Both the position numbers and the translations under genes were made by a program. This document shows positions 45,061 to 50,630 of a stretch of 64,000 nt of DNA, one piece after another. This DNA comes from Escherichia phage JLBYU24. The DNA lies in the sequence record OK272476.1; one strand, written 5' to 3'. The stretch's first letter is position 1. Each line of letters opens with the position of its first letter. The notes beneath the pieces are model-generated. The model was not told the origin of the DNA. It saw only the letters and a program-made list of their open reading frames with translations, and did no database searches.

Positions 45061-45339
45061 TTATTCCTTAATTCCTAGTACTTGTTTAAAAGTCTCGTCG
45101 TAATCAAGACTTTGGCCCGTTTGTTCTTTATGTTTGTATATAATATCACTTACTTCTGATAGCATATTTTTGTATGAACGAGTTAAAGCAGATTTAAGCA
45201 CGCTGTATCTATCAGGAAATTTACCATGTTCATTATAATAAGCTATTGCTAATTCACGGACTGCCTTTTCAGCAGCCTCCATATATTCTTTACGCTTGGT
45301 CATTTTAATCCAAAATATTATTAGGCATTGGTTGAACAC
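45061..45339 (-). CDS. hypothetical protein
   Basis: 92-aa ORF. Confidence 0.4.
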
Positions 45340-45694
45340 TCACAAGTTCTTTAAAGAACTCAGTAGAGTCAGGCAATTTAACCATTTCCGGAGCATGCTT
45401 ACTGAATTTATGTTTACATTGACGGCATTTATATTCAAGCTCTGGTTTACGCCAGTTAATCAATTGAACTTGTTCAGCACCGCATTCAGGGCAATTAGGA
45501 ACGTTTTTAGAAGCTCTTTCACGTCGTTCAACCATAGCCATAATAGCATCCCATGCTGGAGGTTTAAAATCTAAATCGTCGCAGCCATGAATCTTTCCAC
45601 GCATTTCCATATCATCTTCCTCACCAGCCATAATAATTTTAATTAAACTGGAATTACTTGAAGCTGCAATGTCTTCTAATAAACGCTTTTTCAT
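45305..45694 (-). CDS. zinc-ribbon protein
   Basis: 129 aa; CPECG-x17-CRQC. Confidence 0.45.
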
Positions 45695-46620
45695 TTCAAT
45701 ACCTCAATAGCATTACGTAAACCATTTGCTTTTGCATTAAGAGCTTTTAACAATTTGGTGTGTTCGGCAATCTGGGCTTCAACTTCAATCAAACGAGCAT
45801 TGAGATATTCGCGTTCTTCGCTCAGATTATCAACCTTTTCTACTTTAGGCTCTTTTACAACTGTCTTATATGTATTAGGGTTCTTCAGTTTAATTAGAAT
45901 GCGTGAACTATATAACATTGAACCGTTATCTTCGGTTTCGTCATACATTTCTACTACGTCCATGATTTTTAACATCATGCGAAGTTTATAAGACAACGAA
46001 CGAATAGTTTTGTTGTGCTTATTAATTTCTTTAGCTGTCATGGTGCCGAGATTACGTGAGTAATAATAAGGAACCTGGATATTAATTAATACTGATGAAC
46101 CACCTGGCTTGTGTGTTACTTCATCAGCAATAACCCAGTCCTTAACGTGAACTGTATTTGTACGGTCATCGCCCGCGGTAAATAGTTTGCGAGCATGCTT
46201 AAAAAGCATATTCACTTGGTCATTGAATTGACAAGCAAATTTATCAGCAAAGTTAGTTTCAGGAATGGTAGATAACCAATCAGCCAAATGGGTCTTTTTA
46301 ACATCGTTAACAATAGTAAATTCAACCAAATCGGTTATAGATGTCTCAGATTTAATAAAGCTCGGCTTCATAAAGTTTTTAATGTTCTCACGAGCTACAG
46401 TAGAAGATAACATACGAGAACGTTTAAACCATTCAAGCAAATTGCCTAACGAATGAGAATAAGCGTTTTGAGTATCTTTACAGATATGATTTTCCTGACC
46501 AACATATTGAAGGAAATCACGAAGAATATTATTGATTACTGCTCTGTGCCCGATCTGATAATTACGGTGTTTAGTAATAAGACTGTCAAAATAATCAATA
46601 TAATGTTTACGAGTTTTCAT
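45691..46620 (-). CDS. hypothetical protein with C-terminal coiled coil (family member A)
   Basis: 309 aa; N-terminus MKTRKHYIDY; C-terminal ~50-aa heptad-like segment. Confidence 0.5.
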   Translation of the reverse strand: MKTRKHYIDYFDSLITKHRNYQIGHRAVINNILRDFLQYVGQENHICKDTQNAYSHSLGNLLEWFKRSRMLSSTVARENIKNFMKPSFIKSETSITDLVEFTIVNDVKKTHLADWLSTIPETNFADKFACQFNDQVNMLFKHARKLFTAGDDRTNTVHVKDWVIADEVTHKPGGSSVLINIQVPYYYSRNLGTMTAKEINKHNKTIRSLSYKLRMMLKIMDVVEMYDETEDNGSMLYSSRILIKLKNPNTYKTVVKEPKVEKVDNLSEEREYLNARLIEVEAQIAEHTKLLKALNAKANGLRNAIEVLK

Positions 46621-46672
46621 ATTCTTCTCACTTGGTTAATGGTTTATACTCCGAGCCATCCTTGGCTTTAAA

Positions 46673-47674
46673 TTACTTAATTAACTGTAAAGCTTGTTCA
46701 AGACGATCAAGACGATTAACGGATTCTTCCCAAATCTTTTTAGCCTGCTCATATTCTTTCTGCGCTTTATTAGAAATTTCTAGAACTTCTTTATAAGCTT
46801 TTTCTAGTGCAATAACTTCTGGACGAATTTCTACCGGTTCAGGTGAATCGTCAAGATTATCCATTAGTTCCTCAAGGGTAGTTTCTTCTTTAGGAGTATT
46901 CACAATTTCCTCACATTTTTGTTGATAAATTTCTTTATCAGTAGGTGAATAAGCACATTTCACTTCACGAAGACTAATTACAATTTTATATCCTTCCCAT
47001 CCGCATATATTCTTAAAAGGATATGTATGAATATTTTCTACTGTTTCCATACAAAGTAATGCAGTCTCTAACTGACGAGTTATAGTGCTAGCAATTGAGA
47101 AAAATTTATTAATATTCTTTTGGTTAGTTTCTGGTGTAAAAAATCCATAATTCACAAAAATAGCTACTTTATTTTTATCAAGCTCATATTCTTTTACGAT
47201 AATCATATCAGAAGCCAAAGGATGAATTTGACGATAATCGCCATAACATAATTTAGAAGCTGATTTTAGAATTTGTCCTTTGAAAAGTCTGAAATTACTA
47301 ATCCAACGACGAGTAAAAATATTCTCAGGGTCTTCTTTATTATTAAGATGATAAGAATTAACATCACCGAACCAATTATATCCTACTACATCTTTAGTTC
47401 GTTTAATTTCTTTCCCAAAATTACCAAGAATATCCCGATTAACCAAATATGAAAGAAGACGAGACTCTTTAAAAGTTTTTTTGATAACATCTTTATCTAC
47501 ACGGCTAGAAATTTTACGAATTTCATGAATAAATTTAGTAGAAGAAACAATACTTGCATCAACACTATTGAGCCATTGATTGATAATAGAAAGAACGATA
47601 TTTTGACCAAACATCGGTATAGCTTTATCATCAATAACGCTATTGAATGATTTGATATATTCGTTACGAGTCAT
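46673..47674 (-). CDS. hypothetical protein with C-terminal coiled coil (family member B)
   Basis: ~333 aa from MTRNEYIK with GAGGAG RBS; track start overlaps promoter. Confidence 0.5.
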   Translation of the reverse strand: MTRNEYIKSFNSVIDDKAIPMFGQNIVLSIINQWLNSVDASIVSSTKFIHEIRKISSRVDKDVIKKTFKESRLLSYLVNRDILGNFGKEIKRTKDVVGYNWFGDVNSYHLNNKEDPENIFTRRWISNFRLFKGQILKSASKLCYGDYRQIHPLASDMIIVKEYELDKNKVAIFVNYGFFTPETNQKNINKFFSIASTITRQLETALLCMETVENIHTYPFKNICGWEGYKIVISLREVKCAYSPTDKEIYQQKCEEIVNTPKEETTLEELMDNLDDSPEPVEIRPEVIALEKAYKEVLEISNKAQKEYEQAKKIWEESVNRLDRLEQALQLIK

Positions 47675-47702
47675 ATTAATCTCCTCAGTAGAAAGTAAGA
47701 AC

Positions 47703-47732
47703 ATTATACCACATCCTTGTGGCGAAGTAAAC
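47703..47732 (-). promoter_or_regulatory. T4-type early promoter
   Basis: plus attata 47703-47708, gtaaac 47727-47732, tgtgg extension. Confidence 0.5.
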
Positions 47733-48736
47733 TAGTTTAGTGCATTTAGTGCGTTGTTCAATTTAGAACGTTGCTTCGTGAGATTTTTTACTTTTTCTTG
47801 AGCTTTTTCTAGCATCTTTTCAGCTTCTAACACTTCATTAGTTGCTTTAACGAGTTCATCATCTACTGCCTTGATAGACTTCTCAATCGCATCCGCGTGC
47901 CATTTTTCAACAGGTTTAAGACTCGGATTTTCAACAGGAAGAAAATTCACTTTATTGAATTTCCATGCATCATTATTACCTGAACTATACATCCAAAATT
48001 TAGGATCGTTTGATGAGTAATTAGTTTGGGGTTCAGGTTTTTTCTCTTGTGTAACTTCGTCCTTTCTCAAAAAATCATATTTAAATGAAACGATCATATC
48101 AAGTTCATATGTTGTCGTATCTAATTTAAATCGTTCGAAATGCTGCGAAATCTTAGACTGAACAGCAGAAACAACATCCATATACTTAAATGCTTCTGTC
48201 AGCTGTGATTTAAGACATTCACAAATTGAAAGAGAATTTTTAGTACTAGGTTTAAAGCTAATTCGTGCAGTTCTATTATTTTCTTTTAATGGTCTTACTT
48301 CCATCTGAAGAGTATAACCATCAAATTTCAGATTCTTTAAGTTAATATCAGAGCCCTTTAATCGACTAGCAGTAGACAAAATTTGCTTTAATTGTTTACG
48401 AAATAGAGCAATAAATCTCCATTCAATACGATAATGATTTGGATTAAAAAATCCTGTTGATAAATCAACCTTACTCTGACCAACGCCTTGAACAAATAGA
48501 GGATTTTTATAATCAATAGTTTTACAGAAATCGGTGAGCTGCTCACGAGCAGTCATTTGAGTAATATACCCTGCTTCATTAAAATGACGTAACCATTCAC
48601 TGCTATTCATATACTTAAAGTGAATATCACGATTAACTTTATCAGGGTCTAAATTATTTTGGCACAAAAATGTCATAACATTACGGGTATAGCTGGCATT
48701 ACGAACCATATCTTCAATTTGAGAACGAGTTTTCAT
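47732..48736 (-). CDS. hypothetical protein with C-terminal coiled coil (family member C)
   Basis: 334 aa; N-terminus MKTRSQIEDM. Confidence 0.5.
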   Translation of the reverse strand: MKTRSQIEDMVRNASYTRNVMTFLCQNNLDPDKVNRDIHFKYMNSSEWLRHFNEAGYITQMTAREQLTDFCKTIDYKNPLFVQGVGQSKVDLSTGFFNPNHYRIEWRFIALFRKQLKQILSTASRLKGSDINLKNLKFDGYTLQMEVRPLKENNRTARISFKPSTKNSLSICECLKSQLTEAFKYMDVVSAVQSKISQHFERFKLDTTTYELDMIVSFKYDFLRKDEVTQEKKPEPQTNYSSNDPKFWMYSSGNNDAWKFNKVNFLPVENPSLKPVEKWHADAIEKSIKAVDDELVKATNEVLEAEKMLEKAQEKVKNLTKQRSKLNNALNALN

Positions 48737-48744
48737 AGTGTTCC

Positions 48745-49653
48745 TTAAGATTTAAGTAAATCAACAATTTTAATTAATTTTTCACGCTCAGATTTAGCTT
48801 TACTACTCAATCCAGATAGTCTGAAAATTTCATCGTCATACTGTTGAATAGAAATATTCAGCTCTTCAATTTGCTTATTAAAATAATCAATTTGCTCAGA
48901 ATGTTTTTCATTACTGCGAACTGGTACAGGTTTTGTAGGCAATTTAGTTAAACTGGATTCATCCGGGCGATAAATTAAAATACAACTTGAACCAATCGGG
49001 CATTTAGCACCAGACACATATTCTAATGTTCCGGCTTCTTTTAAAACTTCAAAAGCTAAACAGAGATGATGCCCCATATTAACATAATCTGTAGAGCGAG
49101 CTCTAATATAATAATCATCACCGCGAATACTAAATTTAAAGCATTTAAGGTCTTCTGTATTATTGGTCTTAAAAATCATTTGTTTATCTAGACCTTTAGC
49201 TAATCGAGCGCCTAATGCTAATAATCGTCGTTGATTTTCCCACAAATCCGCAATCATTTGGTCAAATGATAATTTCGGCATTAGTCGACCATAAAGGTCG
49301 TATCCTTTATTATAATTGCGAAGGATTTCACTCGCGTTAATACGAGACAATGCTCCAATTTTATTAAGGGCTTTCATAATGCGATTAGATAAACCCATTC
49401 CAGACCCGTTTGTTCGTTGTAAATGTTTATCTAATCCAAATCCAATATCAACTTTAAACTTATCTAAAATTTCTGCATGAACATCTCTGTCAATAACATT
49501 CAAATCCAAAGTTGGGTTAAATCTATGAAAAAATTTATCTGGCTCTCCACGACGAAGTACAGTCCATTCATTCAATTTTTTATTAACTAAAGATTTAATT
49601 ACTGCATTGACATTATTAATTACTACTGACATATTTTCCTCACTCAATTTCAA
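48745..49653 (-). CDS. hypothetical protein with C-terminal coiled coil (family member D)
   Basis: 302 aa; same architecture, more divergent. Confidence 0.45.
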   Translation of the reverse strand: MKLSEENMSVVINNVNAVIKSLVNKKLNEWTVLRRGEPDKFFHRFNPTLDLNVIDRDVHAEILDKFKVDIGFGLDKHLQRTNGSGMGLSNRIMKALNKIGALSRINASEILRNYNKGYDLYGRLMPKLSFDQMIADLWENQRRLLALGARLAKGLDKQMIFKTNNTEDLKCFKFSIRGDDYYIRARSTDYVNMGHHLCLAFEVLKEAGTLEYVSGAKCPIGSSCILIYRPDESSLTKLPTKPVPVRSNEKHSEQIDYFNKQIEELNISIQQYDDEIFRLSGLSSKAKSEREKLIKIVDLLKS

Positions 49654-50102: not shown

Positions 50103-50630
50103 TTATGCGAGTACCGTCTTTAACCGTTCTTCAAACTTCCGAAGAGTATTTTGGCGTTCAGCTCTTTGCTTTTTGTAAGTTTCAATACGCTCTGAAATGA
50201 GAGTGTATCGTTCATTTACTGATTCTTTCATAAAATCAGGAATTTCACGAGAAGCTTTAATCTCGTCAAATTTATCAATAACAGCTTGCTCTTCAGCAAT
50301 TAAGTTATCATACATCAAAATATCTTTCTTGATGAACTCAATATCTTCTTGAGTTACACGAGATAATTTAGATGCTTTATCCTTTTTGTACTGTTCGTTA
50401 GTATCACGAGACCAGTGTAATGTACGATTTTTATTCGTATTCTTGTAAATTTCTACAATACCAATCTCATCAATAATAACGATCCAATTCCAACGGGATT
50501 TGTAAATTTGTCCTCCATCAACAGTGATTTCACCTCCAATTGAGATGTCATTAAAGAACTTGCTTTGTGCTTCTGATTTAAATTTACCATCGTTGTAATT
50601 TACCAGGTTGAAAATATCTTTAGCGTTCAT
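50103..50630 (-). CDS. hypothetical protein
   Basis: ~175 aa from MNAKDIF with GGAGGAAC RBS. Confidence 0.45.
   Translation of the reverse strand: MNAKDIFNLVNYNDGKFKSEAQSKFFNDISIGGEITVDGGQIYKSRWNWIVIIDEIGIVEIYKNTNKNRTLHWSRDTNEQYKKDKASKLSRVTQEDIEFIKKDILMYDNLIAEEQAVIDKFDEIKASREIPDFMKESVNERYTLISERIETYKKQRAERQNTLRKFEERLKTVLA

Follow-up and report, generated by a model that had tools for sequence, protein, structure and literature searches.

What do four consecutive, similarly built genes in the early region of a T4-like phage do, and are they one family? The question is raised by positions 45691-49653 of a 64,000-nucleotide (nt) stretch of DNA from Escherichia phage JLBYU24 (sequence record OK272476.1), which was analysed as a whole and is called the window here. 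An earlier reading of the letters of this stretch (the original prediction) had proposed a tandem family of four genes with coiled-coil-like C-terminal tails and diversifying N-terminal domains (N-domains), a pattern it associated with host-targeting proteins. Here, we describe the four genes as the nrdC.3-nrdC.4-nrdC.5-nrdC.6 block, paralogues of one phage-only family whose common heptad tail is better conserved than the domain preceding it, and we weigh a counter-defence role for them, a reading that the evidence appears to favour slightly.

The window between 45000 and 50200 shares 97-98% DNA identity with Tequatrovirus (T4-like) genomes. Four consecutive open reading frames (ORFs) do fill 45691-49653, as had been predicted, all on the minus strand and with maximal extents of 45691-46620 (309 amino acids, aa), 46673-47704 (343 aa), 47732-48736 (334 aa) and 48745-49653 (302 aa). 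ORF-by-ORF synteny with the annotated phage RB32 matches them to nrdC.3, nrdC.4, nrdC.5 and nrdC.6, with nrdC.7 and nrdC.8 coming next, and the neighbouring ORFs include endonuclease VII, pin and the glutaredoxin gene nrdC. On DNA identity and gene order, the window is assigned to the Tequatrovirus early region and 45691-49653 to its nrdC.3-nrdC.4-nrdC.5-nrdC.6 block (Table 1). The nrdC.4 gene of the window is 97% identical to that of T4 (T4T). Its nrdC.5, located between nrdC.4 and nrdC.6, is 89.4% identical to T4 nrdC.5 and 86.4% identical to the RB32 gene annotated as nrdC.5, and matches the Pfam family DUF7235 (PF23882) over its full length (residues 1-334; 386.7 bits against a cut-off of 30 bits); nrdC.3, nrdC.4 and nrdC.6 do not match DUF7235 and thus stand outside that Pfam family. 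PHROGs places nrdC.3 and nrdC.4 together, with full-length matches to phrog_1435 (the nrdC.3/nrdC.4 family), and nrdC.5 and nrdC.6 each elsewhere; neither of the latter matches the phrog_1435 profile, and nrdC.6 matches phrog_2257 over its full length (2.3e-152). All nrdC.4 homologues carry PF26897 in precomputed tables, and all nrdC.6 homologues carry PF26899.

In each of the four proteins, a basic N-domain (about 220-235 aa) is followed by a linker (20-53 aa) and a C-terminal helix (47-56 aa); the N-domains have an isoelectric point (pI) of 9.3-9.5 and a net charge of +8 to +11. AlphaFold2 monomer models were built from family alignments for two of them, nrdC.4 (predicted local distance difference test, pLDDT, 80) and nrdC.6 (pLDDT 77). 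The nrdC.4 model has an alpha/beta body (1-235) joined by a low-confidence linker to a single long helix (285-332), and the nrdC.6 model a body (1-221), a low-confidence linker and two helices (242-271 and 277-294); the linker modelled in this way is probably flexible. All four tails hold one uninterrupted heptad register over their 47-56 residues, with 80-94% hydrophobic residues at positions a and d, and end in a common register, L(d)-x-x-[A/I](g)-[I/L/V](a)-x-x-[L/I](d)-[K/N](e). Stop-to-stop segments of 100 aa or longer were screened for a final 45 aa that lack proline and are hydrophobic at 80% or more of their a/d positions; of 81 minus-strand segments in the window, four pass, and they are exactly these adjacent genes, so that the specificity of the tail to the four genes is far beyond chance. 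The best 28-residue heptad score of the nrdC.5 tail was reached by none of 200 whole-protein shuffles, and comparison of heptad scores with shuffles gave p values of 0 to 0.025. The coiled-coil-like tails of the original prediction are thus borne out by register, by specificity and by the helices of the two models, as is its remark that three of the genes start alike: an M(K)TR..YI..F start is invariant in the nrdC.3/nrdC.4 alignment and is also present in nrdC.5. The nrdC.6 tail has 17 invariant columns across 22 homologues.

Sequence similarity among the bodies joins three of the genes directly. Among the six BLASTP pairs, nrdC.3 with nrdC.4 is the only significant one (25% identity, 226 aa, E 7e-7), and hhalign gives this pair a probability of 97.7%. 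A joint nrdC.3/nrdC.4 profile, enriched with distant members from an exhaustive hidden Markov model (HMM) search, aligns with the nrdC.5 profile over 245 columns (hhalign probability 96%, E 2.8e-9), and in one protein of a Klebsiella Marfavirus (P0234), an N-terminus like that of nrdC.4 is combined with a tail like that of nrdC.5. From these profile comparisons, nrdC.3, nrdC.4 and nrdC.5 are judged homologous with high confidence. The same exhaustive search, run with the nrdC.3/nrdC.4 profile against 1.84 billion representative proteins, returned 10 cluster representatives, with no nrdC.5 or nrdC.6 among them, and as far as such searches can detect, the family is confined to T4-like phages, without detectable cellular relatives. 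HMMs of the tails alone, built from three families and run against the fourth, found no significant similarity between families, and sequence homology is therefore not claimed from the tails alone. A resemblance limited to the tails, which the original prediction had said would count against it, is the reverse of what was found, as the significant similarity lies mainly in the bodies.

The fourth gene, nrdC.6, very probably belongs to the same family, to which it is tied by predicted structure and by a bridging sequence. Searched against BFVD with Foldseek, the nrdC.4 model matches NrdC.6 of phage JS10 (E 1e-5, template modelling (TM) score 0.43-0.49, 349 alignment columns); the nrdC.4 and nrdC.6 models have five distant Foldseek matches in common, from T4-like phages of Enterobacter, Pectobacterium, Acinetobacter, Erwinia and Yersinia; and helices and strands follow one another in the same order in both. 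Two motifs, F+xSRxLS...NF and (I/L)Lxx(A/G)(S/A)(K/R)LxxG, are also shared and lie colinear in the alignment. The bridge is gp085 of the Kanagawavirus IME523, the single member of the family in that phage, which matches all three profiles, with hhalign probabilities of 95.9% against nrdC.3/nrdC.4 (252 columns, E 5e-9), 93.6% against nrdC.6 and 85% against nrdC.5. By hmmsearch, the nrdC.6 profile aligns to residues 146-333 of gp085, including the LLALGARLAxG motif, and the hhalign alignment with nrdC.6 covers mainly the tail (58 columns). The proposed link between the tails of nrdC.5 and nrdC.6 runs through this bridging protein.

The paralogues are at most 25% identical to each other. Across genera, the N-domain and the tail are conserved at 38-49% and 57-65% respectively in nrdC.4, 31-40% and 61-69% in nrdC.6, and 21% and 27-34% in nrdC.5; between the nrdC.3 proteins of the window and RB32, identity is 62% in the N-domain and 83-85% in the tail (by aligned positions). 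In every lineage, conservation is higher in the tail than in the N-domain. Ratios of nonsynonymous to synonymous substitution (dN/dS) by the NG86 method, for the single pair of the window and RB32, are below 1 for all genes and sub-regions, at 0.12-0.35 per gene and, lowest of all, 0-0.22 in the tails; in this comparison dS reaches saturation in nrdC.3, and 40 of the 49 codons of the nrdC.4 tail were covered. The four genes are anciently diverged paralogues of one phage-only family. The tandem family of the original prediction stands, with N-domains that diverge more than tails, and its picture of ongoing diversification does not, as the identities of at most 25% and dN/dS below 1 speak against recent duplication and against positive selection.

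Comparison across related phages, which had been proposed as a check on the array, showed between one and four copies in T4-like genera, along with deletions and chimeras. Each T4-like genus examined has at least one copy at the corresponding position. Marfavirus and Kanagawavirus have one each; Dhakavirus and Gaprivervirus have three (nrdC.6, an nrdC.5-like gene and nrdC.4, without nrdC.3); the Mosigvirus HX01 also has three (an nrdC.6-like gene at 34%, an nrdC.5-like gene at 23%, and nrdC.3 at 87% to the window, without nrdC.4); and Tequatrovirus has all four. By gene, nrdC.6 is held by 741 phage records, nrdC.3 by 653, nrdC.5 by 581 and nrdC.4 by 553. In phage ACG-C40 (locus L012, 3805-4216), nrdC.5, nrdC.4 and nrdC.3 are gone except for two fragments, one from the 5' part of nrdC.5 and one from the 3' part of nrdC.3, and in phage Pinarejo (locus L008, 5001-5141) nrdC.6 is reduced to a 141-nt remnant. 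Phage Sf25 has an 83-aa internal duplication within nrdC.6 (P0123), and a metagenomic contig has a chimeric nrdC.5/nrdC.3 ORF (P0121). Salmonella phage Manna (locus L007, 4215-5252) joins nrdC.6 residues 1 to about 270, through the first tail helix, in frame with the linker and tail of nrdC.4, with a crossover at a QQxxxEI micro-homology (QQYDDEI / QQKCEEI) and with nrdC.5 and most of nrdC.4 deleted. The Manna junction is present in one of 499 matching records, and its reading as selected domain shuffling was rejected in favour of a one-off event.

The nrdC.3 gene varies in a manner of its own. The window's copy, close to that of HX01, is just 59-61% identical to nrdC.3 of T4 (T4T, HM137666.1) and RB32, and 357 records have alleles of at least 90% identity, 208 of 60-80% and 84 below 60%. 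Judged from these identities, nrdC.3 is present as discrete, deeply diverged allele classes among otherwise similar genomes, which suggests exchange of alleles between genera. The records of this comparison include L002 (6135-7061) and L009 (7972-8922). The overall pattern looks like purifying selection on old alleles combined with exchange, gene loss and rare chimeras, and not like rapid diversification in place.

Evidence on function comes from nrdC.5. An evolved T4 clone with large deletions was blocked on E. coli ECOR17 by the sirtuin defence Dsr1, and T4 nrdC.5, which the paper calls an 'uncharacterized early gene', when supplied from a plasmid restored plating of the deletion mutant on MG1655 with ECOR17 dsr1 (Srikant, Guegler & Laub, eLife 2022; PMC9391042). 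The deletions of the evolved T4 spared all 62 essential genes, and one evolved clone was without nrdC.5 (PMC9391042). The tetratricopeptide repeat (TPR) sensor of Dsr1 is triggered by a phage major capsid protein (2026 preprint, PMC12803255). The window's nrdC.5 is the orthologue of the T4 gene, in the same position and matching over its full length; nrdC.3, nrdC.4 and nrdC.6 are remote paralogues with the same architecture that lie outside DUF7235, and the phenotype holds for the T4 allele. The host-targeting role in the original prediction is thereby supported for nrdC.5, the sole member with such evidence, through restored infection of Dsr1-carrying E. coli. Full-text literature searches found a single functional paper on these genes (PMC9391042), with nothing on the function of nrdC.3, nrdC.4 or nrdC.6 and nothing on how nrdC.5 works or to which family it is related.

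We lean, with limited confidence, towards reading the array as a set of early accessory counter-defence proteins in which the N-domain binds a host immunity protein and the coiled-coil tail oligomerises or docks. On this proposal, the four proteins would be expressed early and be dispensable, and the variable N-domain of each would bind one particular host immunity protein and so set the target. The target of NrdC.5 would be the SIR2 NADase Dsr1, whose TPR sensor NrdC.5 would, in the simplest case, occupy or lock, such that sensing of the capsid protein fails and depletion of nicotinamide adenine dinucleotide (NAD+) is not triggered. For the conserved tail, we propose a coiled coil through which the protein would oligomerise or be docked on a shared partner. 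Conservation of the tails extends beyond the a/d positions, as in DDEIFRLSGL of the nrdC.6 tail and WEESxNRLDxLEQAL of the nrdC.4 tail, and hints for this reason at a specific partner for the tail and not at a generic zipper. Direct binding of Dsr1, oligomerisation by the tail and a counter-defence role of nrdC.3, nrdC.4 and nrdC.6 are all points that we infer.

Two known systems bear on this proposal. The T4 internal proteins IPI, IPII and IPIII offer a likeness for which homology is not claimed, in that both T-even sets pair a shared module with divergent bodies. IPI, IPII and IPIII are reportedly dispensable and said to use a short shared module and divergent bodies against host defences, the module reportedly being an N-terminal capsid-targeting sequence through which the proteins are packaged and injected. 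In nrdC.3-nrdC.6, unlike IPI-IPIII, the shared module is the C-terminal heptad helix, and the genes are early-transcribed. IPIII is a probable counter-defence protein (PMC9391042). A functional analogue of NrdC.5 may be DSAD1 of an SPbeta-type phage, which inhibits the DSR2 sirtuin defence, a SIR2 NADase with a large repeat sensor, by blocking its activation by a phage structural protein (PMC10973363, PMC11087589, PMC11290490). By analogy, DSAD1 and DSR2 would provide the simplest template for the action of NrdC.5; no sequence or fold similarity to DSAD1 was found for the four proteins.

Several points weigh against the counter-defence reading. Experimental functional evidence in the array is limited to nrdC.5, and was obtained with the T4 allele, to which that of the window is 89% identical and not identical. 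Evasion of Dsr1 may also be indirect, by way of NAD+ metabolism, the timing of capsid-protein synthesis or nucleic-acid binding by the N-domain. No arms-race signature was seen in the single pair for which dN/dS was calculated, positive selection being rejected there, and nrdC.6 is 95-99% identical in 443 records, which is unusual for an immune antagonist. The coiled-coil call draws on a home-made heptad score together with two monomer models, and this score is a crude in-house measure, uncalibrated and distinct from COILS or Marcoil. The membership of nrdC.6 comes by way of structure and bridging sequence; direct hhalign comparison of nrdC.6 with the other members gives 1-8% probability, and adding the model secondary structure to the comparison with nrdC.3/nrdC.4 raises this to no more than 51%, over 145 colinear columns that take in the two shared motifs.

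The main rival is an account that we think unlikely yet worth serious attention, in which the four genes are homologues and NrdC.5 alone acts in counter-defence, the family having an ancestral early role otherwise, such as binding of nucleic acids, or of complexes of host or phage, by the basic N-domain, with evasion of Dsr1 derived or indirect. Such a role would fit the basic pI of all the N-domains, the weak resemblance of nrdC.3 residues 30-86 to a SAM-like domain of XerD and integrases, purifying selection throughout, strong conservation of nrdC.6 and the nrdC.4 tail, and the finding of one copy or more at the corresponding position in all T4-like genera examined. Natural isolates nevertheless lose whole genes of the array, the evolved T4 deletions took none of the 62 essential genes and yet one clone lost nrdC.5 (PMC9391042), and the integrase-like matches are below threshold.

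Doubt about nrdC.6 can be taken further, to the position, which we consider quite improbable, that nrdC.6 is not a true member and that its layout is convergent or just its tail was gained by recombination with a neighbouring gene. The low direct profile-profile probability, without added information, would be expected in that case, the hhalign match of IME523 gp085 to the nrdC.6 profile falls mainly in the tail, and the Manna chimera shows that tails can be swapped between these genes. In favour of membership are the Foldseek match of the nrdC.4 model to JS10 NrdC.6, the five distant matches common to the nrdC.4 and nrdC.6 models, the same order of helices and strands in both models, the hmmsearch alignment to residues 146-333 of the bridge, and the 145 colinear columns recovered with model secondary structure. 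The last alternative is chance: helical C-termini rich in Lys, Glu and Leu are held, on this account, to be common in AT-rich phage proteins, and the genes to be unrelated. BLASTP falls short of significance for five of the six pairs, the leave-one-family-out HMMs of the tails have no matches, and nrdC.8, an unrelated neighbour, also has a conserved helical tail. Against these stand the four adjacent genes as the sole passing segments out of 81, homology at the level of the bodies (E 3e-9 for nrdC.3/nrdC.4 with nrdC.5, and E 5e-9 for the bridge with nrdC.3/nrdC.4) and a heptad register that is identical relative to the C-terminus in all four; we regard chance as very improbable indeed and effectively refuted.

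An extension of the counter-defence reading, which we offer as a speculation and hold to be improbable in its full form, would make the array a modular counter-immunity kit, with interchangeable basic N-domains, each fitted to its own host immune sensor and that of NrdC.5 to Dsr1, set on a register-conserved coiled-coil tail. Homo- or hetero-oligomers, or one common partner from phage or host, would then unite the proteins, and recombination between paralogues (compare Manna) would yield new combinations. A weaker addition would have the tail-terminator-like half of the N-domain act as a structural-protein decoy for sensors that detect the virion. Membership of the tail terminator or tail completion fold (similar to lambda gpU and SPP1 gp17) is itself not claimed: scores were under the level usually trusted, Rpo11/L RNA polymerase and nitroreductases scored equally, and the genes are in the early region.

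T4 catalogues have contained these genes for decades, and a Dsr1 phenotype has been published for nrdC.5 (PMC9391042). In the searchable literature, three findings appear to be unreported: that the four genes make up one superfamily, that they have in common a heptad tail of conserved register under more constraint than the body, and that the array runs from one to four copies in T4-like genera, natural chimeras included. T4 is the best-studied phage, and nrdC.5 is the member of the array with a phenotype, evasion of Dsr1. The family link nominates nrdC.3, nrdC.4 and nrdC.6 as counter-defence candidates, which extend to relatives in T4-like phages of Klebsiella, Enterobacter, Acinetobacter, Yersinia and Erwinia, several of them of interest for phage therapy, and splitting NrdC.5 into body and tail offers a way into how Dsr1 is neutralised. 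The gain is incremental and useful, and is not a new kind of system.

Table 1. Coordinates in the window of the four genes, their heptad tails and a promoter-like site
Feature	Position	Strand	Details
nrdC.3 orthologue	45691..46620	-	309 aa; N-domain ~1-225, linker 226-262, tail 263-309; phrog_1435 1e-115; RB32 synteny
nrdC.3 heptad tail	45694..45834	-	aa 263-309; 86% hydrophobic a/d
nrdC.4 orthologue	46673..47674	-	333 aa from ATG 47674, frame open to 47704; phrog_1435 2e-169
nrdC.4 heptad tail	46676..46822	-	aa 285-333, ends ...RLEQALQLIK; 86% hydrophobic a/d; model helix 285-332
Sigma-70 / T4-early-type promoter-like site	47703..47731	-	GTTTAC, 17 nt, TGgTATAAT; between nrdC.5 and nrdC.4
nrdC.5 orthologue	47732..48736	-	334 aa; DUF7235 match; RB32 synteny
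nrdC.5 heptad tail	47735..47902	-	aa 279-334, ends ...KLNNALNALN; 94% hydrophobic a/d; limits from hhalign to nrdC.4
nrdC.6 orthologue	48745..49632	-	295 aa from ATG 49632; frame with TTG start open to 49653
nrdC.6 heptad tail	48748..48909	-	aa 242-295; helix, RLSGLS break, second helix; ends ...KLIKIVDLLKS

Two of the genes probably begin inside their maximal ORFs. The start of nrdC.4 is probably the ATG at 47674 (333 aa) because a GAGGAG Shine-Dalgarno sequence precedes it and the upstream ATG falls within the -10 box of the promoter-like site; the 343-aa nrdC.4 annotation of many records is probably 10 codons too long. For nrdC.6, the start is probably at 49632 (295 aa), since most homologues begin at the methionine of MSVV.... 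The site between nrdC.5 and nrdC.4 has 10 of 12 consensus matches and an extended TG in a consensus scan, a pattern typical of T4 early promoters. The scan of the region as a whole found 28 sites against 28.8 expected, which is not above chance, and the site is taken as a plausible promoter-like element, short of proven.

Many GenBank records label the products of nrdC.1 to nrdC.11 'thioredoxin'. No thioredoxin or glutaredoxin match was found for any of the four proteins in Pfam or NCBIfam, and the label was apparently copied from the gene-name prefix, the true glutaredoxin gene being the adjoining nrdC; a widespread mis-annotation is thus corrected. Searches of Pfam, NCBIfam and PDB sequences gave sub-threshold matches to PHL, Phage_int_SAM_1/XerD, PgrA and caspase-3, all rejected as assignments. 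The weak likeness of nrdC.3 residues 30-86 is to the SAM-like domain found at the N-terminus of XerD and phage integrases (E 0.0017 in NCBIfam and E 0.1 for Phage_int_SAM_1 in Pfam), far below curated cut-offs; it is a possible hint that the helical N-terminal subdomain of nrdC.3 binds nucleic acid. Near-identical proteins (clusters P0018, P0035 and P0118) are filed under Bacillus cereus and Enterococcus faecalis, and are most likely phage contamination of assemblies because these copies are 90-97% identical to coliphage genes.

The gene nrdC.8 (50103-50630, minus strand, 175 aa) was rejected as a fifth member of the array, with no hhalign similarity, no match to the tail HMMs and a C-terminus that falls short in the heptad test. 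It has a conserved helical tail of its own, ...RKFEERLKTVLA, which is 78-82% conserved across genera, with 60-85% for the body. On the other side of the block, nrdC.2 (45305-45694, minus strand) encodes a 129-aa zinc-ribbon protein, and its first 4 nt are shared with the end of nrdC.3 (45691-45694). The RB32 protein is 104 aa long and 76% identical, the C-terminus of nrdC.2 being variable.

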